The notes under the pieces were generated by a model. It did no database searches and had not been told where the DNA came from. It saw only the letters and a list, made by a program, of their open reading frames with translations. A program made the position numbers and the translations under genes. DNA of 32,000 nucleotides from Candidatus Saccharimonadota bacterium (lineage in GTDB: Bacteria; Patescibacteriota; Microgenomatia; UBA1406; GWC2-37-13): assembly GCA_001790095.1 (NCBI GenBank), contig MGBH01000001.1, positions 90,001 to 122,000 of the forward strand, written 5' to 3'. Below, one piece after another: positions 4,763 through 13,118 of this stretch; position 1 is the stretch's first letter, and each line of letters starts with the position of its first letter.

Positions 4763-4796
4763 CCTTCATGAGATCTTCATGGATTATTAGTATAAT
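4763..4796 (+). promoter_or_regulatory. Direct-repeat operator CCTTCATGAGATCTTCATG plus TATAAT (putative autoregulated promoter of the two-component operon)
   Basis: CTTCATG occurs at 4764-4770 and 4775-4781 (11-bp period), then 9 nt, then TATAAT at 4791-4796. It is 16/19 identical to the site at 6485-6503. Confidence 0.5.
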
Positions 4797-4803
4797 AGGA
4801 GGC

Positions 4804-5487
4804 ATGAGGATCCTATTAGTTGAGGATGAAAAGAGGCTTTCGCACTATATAAAAAAAGGACTTGTTGAAGAAGGTTTTGCAGTAGATCAAGCTTACGATG
4901 GAGAAGAGGGTCTATATTTTGCCAAAGAAGAAACATATGACATCATCATACTTGACGTCATGCTTCCAAAACTAAGTGGGGTTGAGGTCTGCAAGCGTTT
5001 TCGAGGCTTCAAAAAGACAACTCCTATCCTTATGCTTACCGCCCGAAGCGAAACTGAAGACAAAATATTGGGACTTGAGTCAGGAGCAGATGACTATCTG
5101 ACAAAACCCTTCGTATTTGCTGAGCTTAAAGCACGTATCAATGCACTGCTTCGCAGAAGCTATCGCCAAGTTTCAAACATACTAACGATAAGAGATCTGG
5201 AGATAGATCCAACAAAACATTCGGTAAAAAGAGACAAAAAAGATATTAAATTAACCCCAAAGGAATTTGCGATCCTGGAACTTCTTATGCGAAGAAAATA
5301 TGAAGTAGTAACTCGAACACAGGTAATTGAACATGTCTGGGACTATAATTTTGACAGTCTTTCAAACGTTGTTGATGTATTCATAGGGACACTAAGAAAA
5401 AAAATCGATAGGGGACATAAGACAAAACTTATCCATACACTACATGGTGTCGGTTATATGATTTCTGACAAAACGCCAAAAGTATGA
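4804..5487 (+). CDS. OmpR/PhoB-family response regulator (CopR/CusR-like by context)
   Basis: Receiver domain MRILLVEDE...ILDVMLP...LTA...K, and a winged-helix output domain (LTPKEFAILELL...HTLHGVGY). AGGAGG lies just upstream of ATG 4804, which is preferred over the tracked 4768. Confidence 0.9.
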   Translation: MRILLVEDEKRLSHYIKKGLVEEGFAVDQAYDGEEGLYFAKEETYDIIILDVMLPKLSGVEVCKRFRGFKKTTPILMLTARSETEDKILGLESGADDYLTKPFVFAELKARINALLRRSYRQVSNILTIRDLEIDPTKHSVKRDKKDIKLTPKEFAILELLMRRKYEVVTRTQVIEHVWDYNFDSLSNVVDVFIGTLRKKIDRGHKTKLIHTLHGVGYMISDKTPKV

Positions 5488-6482
5488 GACATGTCTTTCA
5501 AACGCTTCGATTTAAGCTTCTCTTTTGGTACTTGTTGAGTCTTGTGATTCTGGGTGTATTTATTATTTTGACCATTCATATCCTGCAATATAAATATAGT
5601 GTTCAGCTTATAATTGGTTTATTCATCTTACTTGCCATAATCGGTTTTGTAGTCGTATATAAAATAACTCAGACCATAACATTTCTTTCTTTTCAAATGA
5701 GACAGATCTCAAGTAAAAACTTGGATAAAAAAATAACTTCTATTAAAGGAAACGATGAAATAGGACAACTGGCAAACTCTTTTAATGGATTGCTTGATCG
5801 ATTAGATAAAGCATTTAAAAGAGAGCGTCAGTTTATTGCTGATGTCGCACATGAGATGAAGACTCCTATTGCTACTCTTCGAAGCAGCTTTGAAGTTACC
5901 CTGCGAAAAGAAAGAACAAATGAAGAATACAAAAAGATGATCAAAGATTCGATTATTGAGACTGACAGATTAACCACAACTCTTAAAGATATTTTAGATT
6001 TGGCATGGAGTGAAGTGCCTAACGAAAAACTAAGGGAGTATTTTAACCTGTCCCAACTTATGAGCGAACTATCAGAGATAGCGCAAAAATTAGCGATGAA
6101 AAAAAACATAACAGTATCATCGAATGTCAAATCTCAGATAACGATAAAGGGGTTCCGCGAACGTTTAGGAAGAGCCTTGCTTAATATAATTGATAACGCA
6201 ATAAAATATACCCCTTCCAATGGGAGAATATACATTGCATTGATTAAAGAACAGAATAATGCACTTATCACCATAGAAGATAATGGTCAAGGGATTGAAA
6301 GCAAAGAATTAGACCATATTTTTGACCGGTTTTATCGAGGCTCCAAAGCTGAAAAGACATTTGGTGCTGGATTAGGTCTGGCTATTGCAAAAGCCACAAT
6401 AAAGATGCATAAAGGAGTAATACAAGTACAAAGCAGGCCCAAGATTGGTACAACTTTTTCAATAGCTATCCCGCTCTCTTGA
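5484..6482 (+). CDS. Sensor histidine kinase of the intramembrane-sensing type (2 TM with a ~7-aa loop, HAMP, HisKA, HATPase_c)
   Basis: H-box FIADVAHEMKTPI, N-box LLNIIDNAIKYT, G-boxes EDNGQGI and GAGLGLAI. ATGA overlap with the regulator gene. Confidence 0.9.
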   Translation: MRHVFQTLRFKLLFWYLLSLVILGVFIILTIHILQYKYSVQLIIGLFILLAIIGFVVVYKITQTITFLSFQMRQISSKNLDKKITSIKGNDEIGQLANSFNGLLDRLDKAFKRERQFIADVAHEMKTPIATLRSSFEVTLRKERTNEEYKKMIKDSIIETDRLTTTLKDILDLAWSEVPNEKLREYFNLSQLMSELSEIAQKLAMKKNITVSSNVKSQITIKGFRERLGRALLNIIDNAIKYTPSNGRIYIALIKEQNNALITIEDNGQGIESKELDHIFDRFYRGSKAEKTFGAGLGLAIAKATIKMHKGVIQVQSRPKIGTTFSIAIPLS

Positions 6483-6484
6483 GA

Positions 6485-6519
6485 CCTTCATAATATCTTC
6501 ATACTCTGTCTGTTATGAT
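6485..6519 (+). promoter_or_regulatory. Direct-repeat operator CCTTCATAATATCTTCATA plus extended -10 TGtTATGAT (putative regulator-dependent promoter of the metal operon)
   Basis: CTTCATA occurs at 6486-6492 and 6497-6503 (11-bp period), then 10 nt, then TATGAT at 6514-6519 preceded by TGt. Confidence 0.5.
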
Positions 6520-6549
6520 GGTACTGATTATCAATTTGATAAAACAAAG

Positions 6550-8367
6550 ATGAACAAAACCACTGTAAATATTAAAGGTATGCACTGCCGATCGTGCGAA
6601 ATCTTAGTTGAAGATGAGCTTCTGAAAGTTGAAGGAGTAAAAAAGGCAGTTGTAAATGAAAAAGAAGGGATGGCATACGTATACTATGAAGGCAATATTG
6701 ATCATGGAAAAGTTAAACAAGCGGTGTGTGATGCGGGATATGAAATAGGAATAAAAGAAAAAGCCCCTCTTTTTTCAAAACGAATGCAAGATTACAAAGA
6801 ACTAGGATTTGCGTTTCTTGTGATAATAATTCTTTATCTCATTGGAAAAGAACTCGGTATATTTAATCTTGCCATTAAATCAGGCAGTAACTATAGCAGT
6901 TTGCCAGTTGTATTTTTAGTTGGTCTTACTGCAGGAGTTTCAACCTGTATGGCTTTAGTTGGGGGGTTGGTGCTTGCTGCTTCAGCTCGTTTTGTAGAGA
7001 AACATCCGCAGTCTTCAACTCTCCAAAAATTTAAACCACATTTGTTTTTTAATTTAGGTCGGATTATATCTTTTTTTGTTTTTGGTTGGATCATTGGATA
7101 TGCTGGATCATTATTTCAACTGTCATCAACGACATTAGGGTTATTGACAATTGCAGTGGGTGGGATCATGGTCTTGCTGGGTTTGCAGCTGACCGAAATA
7201 TTCCCACGTCTCAATGGATTAAATTTCACGTTACCCAAAGGGATATCACGAGCTTTTGGAATACGGGAACAGACACAAAAAGAATATAGTCATGCAAATT
7301 CCTTCATGATGGGAACGATGACATTTTTCTTACCATGTGGGTTTACCCAGGCGATGCAACTTTTTGCCATAAGTAGCGGTAATCCTATGGTGGGAGCTTT
7401 AACCATGGGTGTATTTGCCCTTGGGACTGCTCCGGGGCTTTTGGGGATTGGAGGACTGACATCTATCATCAAGGGAGCTTTTGCAAAACCTTTTTTTAAA
7501 TTTGCAGGGCTTGTGGTTATATTCATGGCACTCTTTAATATTTCAAACGGGTTAAATCTTGCGGGGGTTAATGTTAGCGCATTTTTAGATCAAAACTCAG
7601 TTGCCCTTACTCAAACCGATCCCAATGTGACTATGGAAAACGGGGTTCAGATCGTACGTATGACTCAAAAATCAAACGGTTATTTACCCAATTCATTTAT
7701 TATAAAAAAAGGGATTCCAGTTAAATGGATTGTTACATCAGAGGATGCATTTAGTTGTGCAGCGAGTATCGTATCATCTAAACTCAATATCCGCAAAAAT
7801 CTTGAAGCAGGAGAAAACATCATAGAATTTATACCTACTGAAACAGGTAGCATTCGTTTTACATGCAGTATGGGGATGTATAGCGGATCATTCAATGTCA
7901 TAGATGAAACAGATAAGCAAAGCAGTAAAACCCAGATAGATTCACAGACGCAAGCAGCAGATATTGACTTTACCAAGCCAATCAGTGCTTGTAGTGCAAG
8001 TGGGGGTGGGTGCGGATGCGGGCAAAAACCGCAAAGACAGGCAGCATTGGATGCAGATGAAACACCACCTGTTGCAGCAGAACAAAAGGATTCAGTCCAA
8101 GTTCTCAAAGCAACTTATTCGGTGACAGAGGATGTTAGGCCAAATAAATTCACCGTGAAATCAGGAGTCCCGGTACGGTTTGAAATTGATGCAAAAGAAG
8201 ATGGACAGGGGTGTATGGGAAGCATCATGATTCCTGGACTTGACAATAATCCACAGGGATTTGAAAAAGGGAAAATAACCATATTATCATTTACTCCAAC
8301 CAAGGCAGGTACTTATACTATAACTTGTGCGATGGGGGTGCCAAGAGGATTAATAGCCGTAAACTAA
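6550..8367 (+). CDS. Fusion membrane protein: N-terminal HMA domain, 7-TM DsbD_2/UreH-like core, two C-terminal cupredoxin-like (COG4633-type) domains
   Basis: HMA GMHCRSCE (aa 1-66). About 7 TM helices (aa 85-335) with intramembrane STCMA and LPCGF. Domain 1 is aa ~364-450 (FSCAAS...FTCSMGMY). A Cys cluster CSASGGGCGCG lies at aa 481-491. Domain 2 is aa ~515-605 (GCMGSIM...ITCAMGV). Confidence 0.75.
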   Translation: MNKTTVNIKGMHCRSCEILVEDELLKVEGVKKAVVNEKEGMAYVYYEGNIDHGKVKQAVCDAGYEIGIKEKAPLFSKRMQDYKELGFAFLVIIILYLIGKELGIFNLAIKSGSNYSSLPVVFLVGLTAGVSTCMALVGGLVLAASARFVEKHPQSSTLQKFKPHLFFNLGRIISFFVFGWIIGYAGSLFQLSSTTLGLLTIAVGGIMVLLGLQLTEIFPRLNGLNFTLPKGISRAFGIREQTQKEYSHANSFMMGTMTFFLPCGFTQAMQLFAISSGNPMVGALTMGVFALGTAPGLLGIGGLTSIIKGAFAKPFFKFAGLVVIFMALFNISNGLNLAGVNVSAFLDQNSVALTQTDPNVTMENGVQIVRMTQKSNGYLPNSFIIKKGIPVKWIVTSEDAFSCAASIVSSKLNIRKNLEAGENIIEFIPTETGSIRFTCSMGMYSGSFNVIDETDKQSSKTQIDSQTQAADIDFTKPISACSASGGGCGCGQKPQRQAALDADETPPVAAEQKDSVQVLKATYSVTEDVRPNKFTVKSGVPVRFEIDAKEDGQGCMGSIMIPGLDNNPQGFEKGKITILSFTPTKAGTYTITCAMGVPRGLIAVN

Positions 8368-8420: not shown

Positions 8421-8627
8421 ATGGTACAAACAATCAGGATACAATTATCGGGTTTAACATGCACATCGTGCGAGAAGGTGATTGCAAAAAAACTGCAAAC
8501 GATTGACGGAGTACAGGAAGTACATGTGTCGGTGTTAAACGGCTTAACTTTAATCACTGCCTCAAGACCCATTACAAAAGATGAAGTGACTAAAGTATTA
8601 CAAGGAACTCATTATAAAGTTAATTAA
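8421..8627 (+). CDS. copZ: Copper chaperone (single HMA domain)
   Basis: 68 aa, GLTCTSCE metal-binding motif, ferredoxin-like HMA length. Lies immediately upstream of the P1B-ATPase gene. Confidence 0.85.
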
Positions 8628-8647: not shown

Positions 8648-11548
8648 ATGAAAAAGCACGTATTTTTTACCGTTTCCGGAATGCATTGTTCATCATGTGA
8701 ACTATTAACAAAAGATGAACTCTCCACGTTACCCGGTGTGAGCGAAGTGGGTATTGATCATAAATCCGGTAAAGGAGTGCTTATACTTGATGAGGAAAAA
8801 AATTCAGAAAACGACGTCATTAAAGCCATCATAAAAGCAGGATATACGGCAACTATTGAAAGAAGTGAGAATATGATATTCAAAAAGAATGACGATATTG
8901 AAATAATAAAAAAAACTGCAAAAGCAAAGGAACCATTACGGGTTATGTTTGAATCACGTATTACTGCCGATGGCCAGATGGTTGAAAAAGAAGATGGAAA
9001 GATGCAGTTTGAAGGAAAAGTAGAAAACAAGAAAAAAGCTGAGTTTGTCATTCCAAAAGGTCATGAGCAAGAAACCGACAAGTATATACATGGAATCATG
9101 AAATCTCAGAATTTTATGAGACTCATAAGCGAAAAAGATGAGATAGAACATAAAGAGGTGGTCAATAATCAATCTTTACGCAAAGAACCAAACACTCAAA
9201 AGCGTATCTTTCTTTCTCTTTCCGGTATGCATTGTACATCTTGCGCATTGATTATTGAAAAGTCTTTGAGTAAGGTACAAGGTGTAAAGGAGGCTCATGT
9301 AAATTTTGCGGCTGAAAAAGCGTCAATTATTTACGACGAATCATCCGTAAAAACAGACGTTTTGGTTGATACTGTTAAAAAAACGGGGTACTCTGCAACA
9401 ATTCTTGATGAAAAAGATACCGAGTTTGAATCCAAAAAAAGAAACAAGGAGATGAAAAATTTGTTTAACAAATTTGCAGTAAGTCTTTTCTTGAGTTTTC
9501 CAATGTTGTATTTTATGCTTTTTGACTTTTTTCCTTGGTTTCCTGGGGCAAAATTATTACTTCCGCTTGTAGGCATTATTTCACTTATATTAAGTACTCC
9601 GGTCCAATTCATAATTGGTAAAGGATTTTATAAGGGTGCATGGGCTGCACTGCGAATGAAAACCTTTAACATGGATTCTCTTATTGCAATTGGGACGACG
9701 GTTGCATATTTTTACAGTCTGGTTAATTTTATTTTATATTACGTAAATACAAAATCGTTGATAGGTATGAGTGGCGAAAAAATACCTGAGCTTTATTTTG
9801 AAACTGCAGCGTTTCTTATAACCTTTGTTATATTGGGGAAATGGCTTGAAGCGCAGGCAAAGGGAAGGACATCTGATGCGATCAAAAAGTTGATGGGCCT
9901 TCAGGCAAAAACAGCACGCGTTCTTCGAAATGGTGAAACGTTGGATATTCCAATCGAAGAAGTCGTCCACAATGATGTTATATTAGTGCGCCCGGGTGAA
10001 AAAGTGCCGGTTGATGGAGTAATTATTAAAGGTTCCTCTGCGGTTGATGAATCTATGATAACAGGTGAAAGTTTACCTGTTGAAAAACAGATTAATGATA
10101 TGGTGGTTGGTGGGACTATGAATAAGGTCGGAAGCTTTGAGTTCAAAACAACGAGGATAGGGTCGGAGACTACGCTTTCACAGATTATTCGTTTGGTTGA
10201 AGAGGCTCAAGGATCCAAAGCTCCTATCCAGGATTTTGCGGATAAGATATCTGCATATTTTGTTCCGGCTGTCATTGGAATTGCTGTATTAACATTTGTG
10301 ATTTGGTATTTAGTGCTTGGAGCCTCGCTTTCTTTTTCATTGATGGCCTTTACTGCAGTTATCGTTATTGCATGTCCGTGTGCTTTGGGACTTGCGACAC
10401 CAACCGCCATTATGGTGGGTACGGGTAAAGGCGCAGAGTACGGAATGCTCATTAAAGGAGGGGAACCTCTCGAGGGAGCATGCAAAATCAATACGATTGT
10501 CTTTGATAAAACAGGAACACTCACAAAAGGAAAGCCGACAGTTACCGATATTATTTCCTTTAAAGAAATGGATGAAGATGAAGTTCTGACAATTGCTGCA
10601 TCACTTGAAAAACAATCTGAGCATCCATTAGCCGAGGCAATTTATACCTATGCACAGGAGGAAGGGCTTGGCTTAAGTACAGTTGAAGCATTTAAGGCTG
10701 TTCCGGGACATGGAGTACAGGGAAAGACAGATGGTGCGGAGTATTATTTTGGGAATAGAAAATTAATGGAACGGGAAGCTGGACTGTCTGTTGAAAAAAT
10801 AAACCGTAAGATGAGTCGATTGGAGGAGCAAGGAAAAACAGTTATGATTCTCTCAAATAAAACTGAAATATTAGGGATTATCGGAGTTGCCGACACCGTC
10901 AAGGAAACTTCAAAAGAGGCAGTTGAGAAGCTCAAAAAACTAGGCATTGAAGTATATATGATAACGGGAGATAACGTAAAAACTGCAAGAGCAATCGCTT
11001 CACAGGTTGGTATTACCAATGTGCTGGCCGAAGTTCTTCCTGAAGATAAGGCACAAAATGTCAAGAGACTACAAGATAAGGGTAAAAAGGTTGCTATGGT
11101 TGGGGACGGTATTAATGATGCGCCAGCATTAGCACAGGCAGATCTTGGAATCGCTATGGGGTCAGGTACTGACGTGGCTATGGAGGCGGGAGGTATTGTC
11201 ATCATTAAAAACGATCTTCGCGATGTAGCTAATGCCATCGATCTTTCTAAAACCACGATGAATAAGATTAAGCAAAACATGTTTTTTGCTTTGTTTTATA
11301 ACGTCATGGGTATACCTGTTGCAGCACGTATGTTTGCAGGTATAGGATTGGTCTTGAAGCCAGAGCTTGCCGGACTTGCCATGGCCCTAAGCTCAATATC
11401 TGTGGTTAGCAACTCGCTTTTACTAAGAGGATACAAGCCCGGTAAAAGGAATATTCTTTCCACCATAGCGCCGATTATCATGATCTTACTGTTCTCATTT
11501 ATTTTCTTTGAGTTTGCAAAATTTAGTTCAGGGGCAATGAAGAGATAA
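8648..11548 (+). CDS. copA: Copper-translocating P1B-type ATPase with two N-terminal HMA domains
   Basis: GMHCSSCE and [11 protein letters not shown] motifs, TGES, CPC in a TM helix, DKTGTLT phosphorylation site, HP motif (SEHPLA), GDGINDAP hinge. Confidence 0.95.
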
Positions 11549-11568: not shown

Positions 11569-12051
11569 ATGATACGTAACATTGTTGTTACTCTTGAATG
11601 CTTTGTAAAAAAAGGTAATAAATATCTACTCCTTCACCGTAACAAAACTAAACGAATTATGCCTGATATATGGATGGCGCCAGGCGGACATCGTGAGTTC
11701 AATGAAGGGCTTTTTGCTTGTGCTAGGCGTGAGGTTGAAGAAGAGACAGGATTAAAAATAAAAAATCTCCGGATCAAAGCGGTCGGGAATGCATATGTCA
11801 AAGATATTGACCAGGAATTCTATTTTCATATGTTGGTAGCTGACTACGAGGGGGGAGTTTTGAAGACACATGATGAAGATGGAACATTTGAGTGGCTTAC
11901 TGGGGAGCAAATCATGAAGCTTAACAAACTTCTTCCTGAATTGAAAGAAATATTGCCACATGTCTTGTCTGACAGTAAAGATATTATCTCTTATCAAGCG
12001 GCATATGAAAAAGGGACACAGATGAGTTTTTTTGAGATAGAAAGACCTTAA
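11569..12051 (+). CDS. NUDIX hydrolase
   Basis: Canonical Nudix box GHREFNEGLFACARREVEEETGL (Gx5Ex7REUxEExGU). Confidence 0.8.
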   Translation: MIRNIVVTLECFVKKGNKYLLLHRNKTKRIMPDIWMAPGGHREFNEGLFACARREVEEETGLKIKNLRIKAVGNAYVKDIDQEFYFHMLVADYEGGVLKTHDEDGTFEWLTGEQIMKLNKLLPELKEILPHVLSDSKDIISYQAAYEKGTQMSFFEIERP

Positions 12052-13118
12052 CCTACAAACTCTCTCATATTTTCATCATTTAAAACAAATGAAGTACCTT
12101 GGCCAGAGACTATTTTATAGGCGATTTTGCGTACAATAGTTTCGATTTCCCTCTCTAGACTGCGAATGCCAGGTTCAAACCCAAGAGGTCGTACCATCTT
12201 TGCCCAGACCGTATCTTCGATCTTAAGCTGTTCATTTGTCAAACCTGATTCTTTCATAAAACGGGGTAGTACAAAACGTTTTCCGATCTCAATCTTGTCC
12301 TGATCGTTGTATGATGGCATCTGGATGAGCTCAAGACGGTCCATGACTGCTGTAGCGATACTATTTGTGTTGTTGGCTGTTGCAACGAAAAGACATTGTG
12401 AAAGATCAAAGGGATAATCGATAAAATAATCAGTGTAAGCTGCGTTTTGTCCTGGATCAAGAAGTTCGATGAGGACGCCCATAATTGAGGAACGAGATTC
12501 CGGTGTGCATCGGTCAAGTTCATCAAGAAGGATGACGGGATTTTTTGTCCCTGCACGTCGTAATGCTTTCATGACCATACCTGGTTCGGACTCTGGCGAT
12601 GTTTTTGATTGTCCGCGTAGATCAACCGCAGAAGAAAGTCCTCCAAAAGGTATTCTGACGAGTTTTCTTCCCATGGATTCTGCAATCGACTTGGCAAACG
12701 TTGTTTTACCAGTGCCTGCTAGACCGACAAAAAACAGATTTGGGGCGTGGAGAGTGCCGGTTGGGGCTCTTTGTTTTTGGAGAGCTAGTACTGATAGGTA
12801 TTCGAGGACTCTTCTTTTAATGGGTTCAAGCCCGTAGTGGTTTTGGTCTAAAAACACTTTTGCTTTATTTATATCAAGTATATCTTCTGTCTTTTTTTCC
12901 CAGGGAAGGTTGGTGATCCAATCGATGTATTTTGCCGTAATGTCAAGTTGAGTGAGACTTCCCCCGTATTTTAAGGTCAAATTAATACGCTCAATTTGTT
13001 GTAATGCTTTATCATGAAGATTAGCAGGCAACACGGCTGACTGCAACTGTACCTTCAGCTTTTCAATTTCTGACAGGCTGTTTTGAGGGCTTGTTTGGTT
13101 AGCAGACAAATTATCCAC
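12048..13118 (-). CDS. LonA-like AAA+ ATPase module lacking both the N-terminal substrate domain and the protease domain
   Basis: Collinear with the LonA coiled-coil plus AAA+ region: DQNHYGLEPIKRRVLEYLSV, Walker A GLAGTGKT, Walker B VILLDELD, PGIRSLEREIETIVRKIA. It stops where the Ser-Lys protease domain should start. GTG start. 4-bp convergent overlap with the NUDIX gene. Confidence 0.8.
   Translation of the reverse strand: MDNLSANQTSPQNSLSEIEKLKVQLQSAVLPANLHDKALQQIERINLTLKYGGSLTQLDITAKYIDWITNLPWEKKTEDILDINKAKVFLDQNHYGLEPIKRRVLEYLSVLALQKQRAPTGTLHAPNLFFVGLAGTGKTTFAKSIAESMGRKLVRIPFGGLSSAVDLRGQSKTSPESEPGMVMKALRRAGTKNPVILLDELDRCTPESRSSIMGVLIELLDPGQNAAYTDYFIDYPFDLSQCLFVATANNTNSIATAVMDRLELIQMPSYNDQDKIEIGKRFVLPRFMKESGLTNEQLKIEDTVWAKMVRPLGFEPGIRSLEREIETIVRKIAYKIVSGQGTSFVLNDENMREFVG

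Follow-up and report, generated by a model that had tools for sequence, protein, structure and literature searches.

The window analysed here is a stretch of 32,000 nucleotides from a Candidatus Saccharimonadota bacterium (GenBank assembly GCA_001790095.1, contig MGBH01000001.1, positions 90,001 to 122,000 of the forward strand). On this strand it contains, in the order of transcription, genes for a response regulator, a histidine kinase, a 605-residue fusion protein, a CopZ-like HMA protein and a CopA-type ATPase. The subject of this study is the fusion gene (open reading frame 6550..8367, ATG start), whose product combines an N-terminal HMA domain, an extra transmembrane (TM) helix, a DsbD_2 core of six TM helices and two cupredoxin domains separated by a cysteine-rich linker. 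The HMA domain (Pfam PF00403) was matched at residues 5-65 (E-value 3e-10, 40.7 bits against a cut-off of 24.8) and the DsbD_2 domain (PF13386) at residues 121-328 (E-value 2.5e-31, 109.6 bits against a cut-off of 24.9), the latter alignment covering positions 2-198 of the 199 in the model. Cupredoxin_1 was found in two stretches with an E-value of 1.7e-16, above the gathering score. A preliminary description of this DNA had proposed the same three-part architecture, and the Pfam matches together with an AlphaFold2 model (built from 149 sequences; mean pLDDT 88, pTM 0.72) bear it out. All motifs quoted in that description are present in the translation, namely GMHCRSCE with C13 and C16, STCMA with C133, LPCGF with C263, FSCAAS with C403, TCSMGM with C439, M441 and M443, GCMGS with C555 and TCAMG with C593 and M595. 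The quoted spacers require correction: FSCAAS and TCSMGM are separated by 31 residues instead of 34, and GCMGS and TCAMG by 33 instead of 36.

Pfam, conservation and the modelled fold agree on a cytoplasmic HMA domain with the motif GMHCRSC (residues 4-65, 6559..6744). Its beta-alpha-beta-beta-alpha fold (strands 2-9, 30-36 and 41-46, helices 14-25 and 52-61) occupies the very N-terminus of the protein and is not preceded by a signal peptide. Seven TM helices follow (residues 79-337, 6784..7560), of which the first is additional and TM2 to TM7 constitute the DsbD_2 core. They are delineated by Pfam, hydropathy, charge distribution and the AlphaFold2 model, which places them at residues 79-102, 118-151, 162-188, 193-215, 248-276, 279-306 and 312-337; hydropathy gives six strong peaks and a weaker stretch at 251-274. 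In the model, TM2 and TM5, corresponding to TM1 and TM4 of the core, are kinked at C133 (codon 6946-6948) and C263 (codon 7336-7338). The predicted inside loops of the window protein contain 17 lysine and arginine residues compared to one in the outside loops. The family means are 14.7 and 1.9, and the inside count exceeds the outside count in 149 out of 149 sequences. Given these positive-inside charges and the N-terminal HMA fold lacking a signal peptide, a topology with the HMA domain inside and the cupredoxins outside is well supported by prediction. The odd number of TM helices and the location of the two ends on opposite faces of the membrane, as suggested before, are thus supported by hydropathy, AlphaFold2 and the positive-inside rule alike. 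In homologues from outside the candidate phyla radiation (CPR), the absence of the HMA domain goes along with that of the first helix; these proteins begin directly at the 6-TM core, followed by an Arg-rich first loop. TM1 therefore appears to serve to place the HMA domain on the cytoplasmic face with the termini of the core pointing outward.

Cupredoxin domain 1 (residues 360-451, 7627..7902), predicted to be extracytoplasmic, is homologous to CupA of Streptococcus pneumoniae. phmmer aligned it with CupA (PDB 2mry/4f2e) at an E-value of 1e-9 and with the metal-binding domain of CopA (4f2f) at 1.6e-8. FSC aligned with the first ligand Cys of CupA and TCSMGM with its C-x-M-x-M motif, so that all four ligands are matched (C403, C439, M441 and M443). 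Foldseek superimposed the modelled domain on 4f2e with a TM-score of 0.89 and a root-mean-square deviation of 1.9 Å, and on 4f2f with a TM-score of 0.85 and 1.3 Å. Domain 1 hence carries the complete CupA-type ligand set Cys...Cys-x-Met-x-Met, comprising the S1 bis-thiolate and the S2 Met ligands. The earlier statement that no single-domain relative has an established function has to be withdrawn, since CupA has been characterised as a chaperone of Cu(I). Its fold is that of a cupredoxin, and its Cu(I) site is binuclear, consisting of a bis-thiolate high-affinity site S1 and a Met-rich site S2; the protein is anchored to the membrane, is needed for copper resistance and passes Cu(I) to CopA (PMC7558416, section 4.2; PMC13460109). 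Besides fold and ligands, the fusion protein shares with CupA the tethering to the membrane and the position beside copA in a copper-regulated operon (PMC7558416). The two proteins differ in topology: CupA has a single N-terminal TM anchor and its soluble domain faces the cytoplasm, whereas in the fusion protein seven TM helices precede the cupredoxin domains, whose predicted location is outside. Furthermore, and unlike in CupA, the cupredoxin domains are duplicated, are accompanied by a Cys-rich linker and include a domain 2 without the second Met. The CopA of the window possesses ordinary HMA domains and not the cupredoxin domain seen in CupA-linked CopA.

Domain 2 (residues 511-605, 8080..8364), recognised as a Cupredoxin_1 stretch and as a beta-sandwich in the model, is likewise predicted to be extracytoplasmic and is an internal duplicate of domain 1 (34% identity, E-value 3e-14). 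It contains C555, M556, C593 and M595, with Val597 in place of the second ligand Met. Weak Filamin matches to domain 2 were rejected as generic beta-sandwich similarity, domain 2 being a paralogue of domain 1. In agreement with the preliminary description, sequence and domain comparison confirm that the usual His ligands are replaced by a Cys...Cys-x-Met arrangement in both domains. As neither contains a single His (the protein has His only at positions 12, 52, 152, 164 and 248), they are not type-1 copper centres, and a role in blue-copper electron transfer was rejected because the respective His...Cys...His...Met ligand set is absent. The linker joining the two domains (7903..8079), delimited by the model and by conservation, harbours C481-x6-C488-G-C490 (7990-8019) within the motif CSASGGGCGCG (residues 481-491, 7990-8022). 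Its residues 461-491 are disordered in the AlphaFold2 model (pLDDT below 50). The Cys cluster is conserved to 94-97% in close relatives, and C488 and C490 to 84-86% among diverse relatives that have residues at these positions; the C-x6-CxC cluster is confined to proteins with tandem cupredoxins. CXC tails, which the linker arm resembles, occur in eukaryotic copper chaperones.

Relatives of the fusion protein are numerous. A word-indexed search returned 4350 proteins at E ≤ 1e-5. In a representative library clustered at 50% identity, 1102 proteins reached E ≤ 1e-30, and at least 460 stretches of the GTDB collection, which holds one genome per species, encode a relative. Identity is highest, at up to 80%, to proteins of Candidatus Roizmanbacteria and other Microgenomates, and more remote relatives occur in WWE3, Moranbacteria, Peregrinibacteria, Gracilibacteria, Saccharibacteria, Paceibacterota and Doudnabacteria. 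Related loci that we compared with the window carry the labels L001, L002 and so on. Among the fetched loci, 34 encode a form of about 450 residues with a single cupredoxin domain and 37 the tandem form of about 600 residues. In L027, L043, L071, L074 and L076 the fusion orthologues each contain two in-frame stops under translation table 11, which may reflect an alternative genetic code or frameshifts. Recoding of UGA is known in Gracilibacteria-type lineages. In the databases, relatives are named either 'sulfite exporter TauE/SafE family protein' or hypothetical. We rejected a role as sulfite or TauE-type exporter in view of the copper context and because no TauE-family Pfam profile matched the window protein or any of the 64 relatives scanned. 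The label is misleading for this family.

Conservation was computed over 132-149 diverse relatives with roughly 30-60% identity to the query. Six cysteines are conserved to at least 98%: the CxxC pair of the HMA domain, one at each of the two kinked TM helices and two in cupredoxin domain 1. C13 and C16 (invariant among the diverse relatives that have the HMA domain), C133, C263 and C403 reach 100%, C439 98%, and the Met ligands M441 and M443 97% and 81%, respectively. C133 lies in the context S-x-C-x-A-x-x-G-G and C263 in the context F-F-x-P-C-G-F-T-Q. Within the membrane, R171 is invariant and M207 and M286 are conserved to 92% and 86%. A comparison of seven sequences that included homologues from outside the CPR retained M286 and a basic residue at the position of R171 in 7/7 and M207 in 5/7; in five of the six non-CPR homologues the basic residue is Lys.

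This membrane core resembles that of the DsbD, CcdA and ScsB proteins (TC 5.A.1), whose Pfam clan includes DsbD_2. They share a 6-TM core built as a 3+3 repeat, and DsbD_2 was matched in all 64 relatives. The redox-active Cys residues of DsbD and CcdA lie in TM1 and TM4 of the core. The fusion protein likewise has one Cys at the helix break in each of these two helices. Another common feature is the fusion to an extracytoplasmic, Cys-containing domain of the beta-sandwich type, and a link to copper tolerance has been described for these proteins too (PMC4608589). By sequence, however, the window protein falls outside the DsbD family proper: it gave no match to DsbD_TM (PF02683), and only one of the 64 relatives did so (E-value 5e-6). 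In addition, a profile search of the PDB with the core found no solved DsbD or CcdA chain. The cytoplasmic partner of the core also differs, being an HMA domain and not a thioredoxin, and the outer domain has the fold of a Cu(I) chaperone instead of a thioredoxin fold.

Considering this kinship, the protein could act as a conduit for electrons. The Cys pair in the membrane would then carry reducing equivalents outward and keep the CupA-like Cys2 sites and the CxC linker reduced, and the reduced outer sites would sequester Cu(I) received from CopA or from outside, while copper itself would never cross the protein. Beyond the two invariant Cys at the helix breaks, this is in line with the assignment of the core to DsbD_2 and the single DsbD_TM match, with the plausible need of thiol copper sites on the outer face for a reductant, and with the description of the DsbD family as two-electron carriers with roles in copper resistance (PMC4608589). 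Nonetheless, we regard an electron conduit as unlikely, although it is the main rival of the explanation favoured below. It assigns no role to the invariant HMA domain, which is either fused or encoded immediately downstream in every phylum examined, and the conserved M207, M286 and membrane basic residue would be unnecessary for disulfide exchange. A third argument comes from homologues outside the CPR.

Protein searches of plasmid and chromid records revealed the same module in Tsukamurella, Mycolicibacterium, Streptomyces, Deinococcus and Candidatus Chlorohelix, as well as a fused version in the Firmicute Acetoanaerobium. The unfused protein has 335-426 residues. Its 6-TM core shows the TM Cys motifs of the fusion protein and is followed by one CupA-like domain that ends in C-x-M-G-M. 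Directly behind the DsbD_2-cupredoxin gene, and in Streptomyces overlapping it by 4 nt, lies a gene of its own for an HMA protein of 72-85 residues without a signal peptide. By the classical Rosetta-stone argument, this pairing points to the HMA domain as the functional partner of the membrane protein. In Deinococcus and Chlorohelix the pair is present without an adjacent ATPase gene, while at the other loci genes for a P1B ATPase and a MerR-type regulator adjoin. A search seeded with the Tsukamurella protein revealed a wide distribution of the unfused form in Actinobacteria, among them Mycobacteroides abscessus, Nocardia, Amycolatopsis and Lentzea, where it is always labelled just 'TauE/SafE' or 'UreH domain-containing'. 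The term UreH domain is the label of some databases for DsbD_2; an identity with the UreH transporter family is assumed from the name only. In five of the six annotated actinobacterial loci from outside the CPR, separate genes next to the unfused homologue specify canonical CcdA and/or TlpA-type reductases or peroxiredoxins. This separate provision within the same islands suggests that the DsbD_2 core does a job other than supplying reductant, and it weighs against the electron conduit. In three Streptomyces plasmids (L084, L087 and L088), genes for CcdA, a hypothetical protein of about 135 residues, the DsbD_2-cupredoxin protein and the HMA protein lie on one strand in this conserved order. 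Nearby divergent genes encode CcdA, peroxiredoxin and glutaredoxin- or glutathione S-transferase-like proteins, in L088 also TlpA, and a BlaI/CopY-family regulator and an M56 peptidase are encoded nearby as well.

The surroundings of some unfused homologues hint at a different metal. In a Tsukamurella plasmid (L081), merA and a multicopper oxidase gene follow the pair, and in a Deinococcus plasmid (L082), merB and a gene for a MerR-family regulator are located near it. The family may thus handle Hg(II) in some hosts. In mer systems, MerP, MerT and the N-terminal domain of MerA form a thiol relay, and the succession of stations in the fusion protein mirrors this layout. By analogy, the outer CupA-like domains could take up Cu(I), Ag(I) or Hg(II) and pass it inward via the Cys pair and the HMA domain to CopZ and CopA or to MerA, either to clear the cell surface or to supply the cytoplasmic detoxification machinery. 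MerT/MerP and MerTP fusions indeed follow the same logic of an HMA CxxC site, membrane Cys and a further Cys site in a relay that does not require ATP, and the HMA domain also scored against the MerP and MerTP models. These matches, however, were restricted to the HMA domain (residues 2-70). No MerT model matched the TM core (residues 75-345), so that the resemblance is one of analogy and not of family membership. Moreover, the HMA domain of the fusion protein is predicted inside instead of outside, and the genetic context is one of copper (CopA, CopZ, and CsoR or a CopRS-type system). The partner in the CPR is a Cu(I) exporter, the regulators are of the copper type (CsoR with a Cu(I) signature or a two-component system of the CusS/CopS type), and bringing copper into the cell under copper stress merely for re-export would be futile. 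Overall, we consider uptake quite improbable. A parallel in domain composition is provided by the COG2836-type proteins of gut Firmicutes, which show the same fusion of HMA and DsbD_2, in part with DUF2318 as the outside domain instead of a CupA-like cupredoxin. Proteins composed of HMA, DsbD_2 and DUF2318 have been predicted to belong to the CsoR regulon and sometimes form an operon with copA (PMC4938975).

The copper context of the fusion gene is remarkably constant. An absence of conserved linkage to metal genes had been set beforehand as a possible refutation of a role in metal handling, and the opposite was found: in 62 of the 63 loci where the gene is complete and the downstream sequence exceeds 1.5 kb, a gene for a CopA-type ATPase follows on the same strand within less than 1.5 kb, with a small HMA gene in between in 31 of them. 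In the window, the small gene encodes a CopZ-like HMA metallochaperone of 68 residues with the motif LTCTSC (8421..8627, + strand), identified by profile matches. The next gene encodes a P1B-1-type Cu(I)-exporting ATPase of 966 residues (8648..11548, + strand), which scored 652.7 bits against TIGR01511 (cut-off 397) and has two N-terminal HMA stretches and a CPC motif in the sequence ACPCALG. A Lys/Glu-rich insert of about 115 residues (residues ~70-185) separates the two HMA domains of this CopA. In several loci of the single-cupredoxin form, the CopA homologues align only from about residue 185, which suggests that they have one HMA domain. Genes with housekeeping functions flank the run (cyclophilin, a Nudix hydrolase, a Lon-like AAA+ protein, GroEL and enolase). 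On the reverse strand, an open reading frame at 12048-13118 with a GTG start encodes a 356-residue protein with AAA and Lon-lid domains and without a Lon protease domain; it could be either a Lon that is truncated or split, or an AAA+ protein resembling Lon.

Upstream of the fusion gene lie the genes for an OmpR/PhoB-type response regulator with Response_reg and Trans_reg_C domains (4804..5487, + strand) and a CusS/CopS-like histidine kinase with HAMP, HisKA and HATPase_c domains (5484..6482, + strand). The reading frame of the regulator is listed from 4768, but its likely start is 4804 (Met13), since tblastn alignments of homologues begin at query residues 12-13; an AGGAGG Shine-Dalgarno sequence and an ATG are present at this position. 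The presence of a regulator-type operator before the fusion gene, noted earlier, was verified. The operator and promoter of the unit formed by the fusion gene, copZ and copA (6486..6519, + strand) contain a CTTCATA-N4-CTTCATA repeat, CTTCATAatatCTTCATA, at 6486-6503 with an 11-bp period, followed about 10 nt further by an extended -10 element, TGTTATGAT, at 6511-6519. The box, with CTTAATA in some variants, recurs before the orthologous gene in most of the loci L001-L030 and in L040 and L046, and it is kept before the fusion gene even where another ATPase gene intervenes after the kinase gene. We conclude that the fusion-copZ-copA unit is a target of the two-component system. A second operator-like repeat, CTTCATGagatCTTCATG (CTTCATG-N4-CTTCATG, 4764-4781), is combined with TATAAT at 4791-4796 (4764..4796 in total, + strand). 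As it stands before the regulator start in a layout like that of the box before the fusion gene, the two-component system is probably autoregulated. The additional P1B-type ATPase genes between kinase and fusion gene (L001, 5062-7053; L006, 5659-7602; L014-L020, ~5950-7920) encode proteins that are about 45% identical to CopA residues 270-927 and lack N-terminal HMA domains; such a gene is absent from the window.

The mode of regulation differs between clades. Upstream sequence of more than 3 kb was available for 55 loci; 17 of these have a regulator-kinase pair upstream and all 17 encode the tandem form, whereas in 12 a CsoR-family repressor (PF02583) is encoded directly upstream, 11 of them with the single-domain form. 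These CsoR proteins, which are cytoplasmic sensors, have 88-110 residues, and most show the Cu(I)-type pattern C-x24-H-x3-C. CsoR takes the place of the two-component system in L047, L060, L063, L064, L071, L072, L075, L077, L041, L044 and L050, and the CsoR-type loci are of Saccharibacteria, Peribacteria, Gracilibacteria and Paceibacterota type.

The kinase of the window deserves attention in regard to signal perception. It has 332 residues, contains no Cys and, as had been noticed before, lacks a sensing loop, its two TM helices being adjacent and only about 7 residues apart. With TIGR01386 it reached 232.3 bits, below the cut-off of 292.55, and aligned with model positions 168-457 only, so that it is not a full-length CusS/CopS protein. 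The turn between TM1 and TM2 reads H-I-L-Q-Y-K-Y-S in the window and H-I-(L/Y)-Q-Y-K-Y-S in seven of the eight sensor-less kinases (residues 30-40); it is the sole candidate for an external or interfacial sensing element of the kinase. Bce-type transporters signal to BceS-type kinases, and the fusion protein could similarly report external or trans-membrane copper to the loop-less kinase through contacts between membrane helices. Such a role as co-sensor would be consistent with the missing loop and missing Cys of the kinase, with its conserved mini-loop HIxQYKYS, with the position of the fusion gene next to the kinase gene under the operator of the two-component system itself, and with the occurrence of the tandem form in 17/17 loci linked to a two-component system. 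The latter association, however, may reflect common ancestry. Furthermore, among the complete kinases encoded upstream of the gene, sensor-less ones are confined to the window and L001, L005, L006, L008, L009, L010 and L046. The other 14 have 446-500 residues with about 120 residues between the TM helices, apart from L030 with 384 residues, and they accompany the same fusion protein, most with the operator before the fusion gene. The restriction to the window and seven related loci indicates that the loss of the sensor domain is lineage-specific, while the fusion protein is much older and more widespread. Given that loop-bearing kinases go along with the same protein and operator, that the family also occurs with CsoR or MerR-type regulators or with no kinase nearby, and that unfused forms exist in other phyla, the co-sensor function put forward in the preliminary description is weakly supported as a general function; for the subclade of the window it is conceivable but, in our judgement, very improbable.

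We favour, tentatively and at somewhat less than an even chance, the view that the protein relays Cu(I) over three thiolate stations in cooperation with CopZ and CopA. The relay is preferred over the electron conduit because of the invariant HMA partner, the separate genes for CcdA and TlpA and the conservation of M207, M286 and the basic residue within the membrane. Support comes from the domain composition and predicted topology, the conservation of all cysteine stations, the kinship of domain 1 with CupA, the place of the gene in copper-type regulons and its almost universal linkage to CopA, as well as from the unfused pairs outside the CPR; the resulting layout of thiol stations inside, within and outside the membrane would suit a relay and an electron conduit alike. 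The protein would be a copper-stress-induced partner of CopZ and CopA in the inner membrane. Its first station would be the CxxC site of the cytoplasmic HMA domain. The second would be the pair C133 and C263, each located where a discontinuous helix is broken midway through the 6-TM DsbD_2 core, which belongs to the LysE superfamily, and the third the outward-facing Cu(I) site with its CupA-type Cys2Met2 ligands. Exchanging ligands at each step, Cu(I) or a different thiophilic ion, for instance Ag(I), could be transferred from the HMA domain to the Cys pair in the membrane and on to the outer cupredoxin domain or domains, which would act as acceptor and buffer at the surface. In the lineage of the window the third station would be extended by the flexible C-x6-CxC arm and the duplicated CupA-like domain, which might add surface capacity or serve as an arm for handing over the metal. 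Overall, this would constitute an export or hand-off route that is independent of ATP and runs parallel and accessory to CopA.

The LysE superfamily includes the metal exporters CadD, NicO/RcnA and MntP, and for the DsbD family, described as two-electron carriers, roles in mercury and copper resistance have been reported (PMC4608589). Certain transporters of the UreH family mediate nickel transport (PMC2667541). We infer that the membrane Cys pair binds metal rather than undergoing disulfide cycling, and the same applies to the metal specificity and to the direction of transfer; an outward direction would fit the joint induction of the protein and CopA through copper sensors as well as the fact that most metal carriers in the LysE superfamily are exporters. 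Several points weigh against a relay. The nearest characterised TM relatives, DsbD and CcdA, use such a Cys pair to move electrons and not metal. A passive relay from inside to outside needs a gradient of affinity or a sink, or coupling to protons, and the adjacency of merA and merB at two loci fits import rather than export. Foldseek found no solved structure that resembles the TM core (best PDB match with an E-value of 0.12), and our literature search returned no biochemical study of any family member. A trans-membrane metal relay, as suggested in the preliminary description, is plausible but unproven.

A more far-reaching version of this idea is possible, if doubtful. A protein with the DsbD fold could have been repurposed from disulfides to thiophilic metal. 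The two TM cysteines would then hold Cu(I) as a bis-thiolate, with supply by the HMA domain from the inside and unloading to the CupA-like domains on the outside. This would define a new class of ATP-independent Cu(I) transporters across the CPR, Actinobacteria (including Mycobacteroides abscessus and Streptomyces), Chloroflexi, Deinococcus and some Firmicutes, whose state would, in the Roizmanbacteria-like subclade, also be read by a kinase without a sensor domain of its own.

Every part of the protein comes from a known family, and domain databases already show the architecture. Our literature search found no experimental or descriptive study of the combination of HMA, DsbD_2 and cupredoxin domains, the nearest report being the prediction cited above (PMC4938975). 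The family may represent an uncharacterised, widespread accessory to copper export; its CupA-type site is predicted to lie outside the cell, and its DsbD-type core may transport metal. The question is directly testable, as unfused homologues occur in cultivable Actinobacteria. Bacterial copper export is commonly described in terms of P1B ATPases and soluble or tethered cytoplasmic chaperones, joined in diderms by periplasmic acceptors and RND pumps. To this inventory, the family would contribute a protein that reaches both membrane faces and bears copper-chaperone domains on either side, and its predicted CupA-type site outside the cell would be the first such placement. The pairing with CopA is near-obligatory in CPR bacteria, whose very small genomes tend to keep just the genes that are needed. 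In conclusion, the fusion protein bears on whether the DsbD fold carries metals besides electrons.

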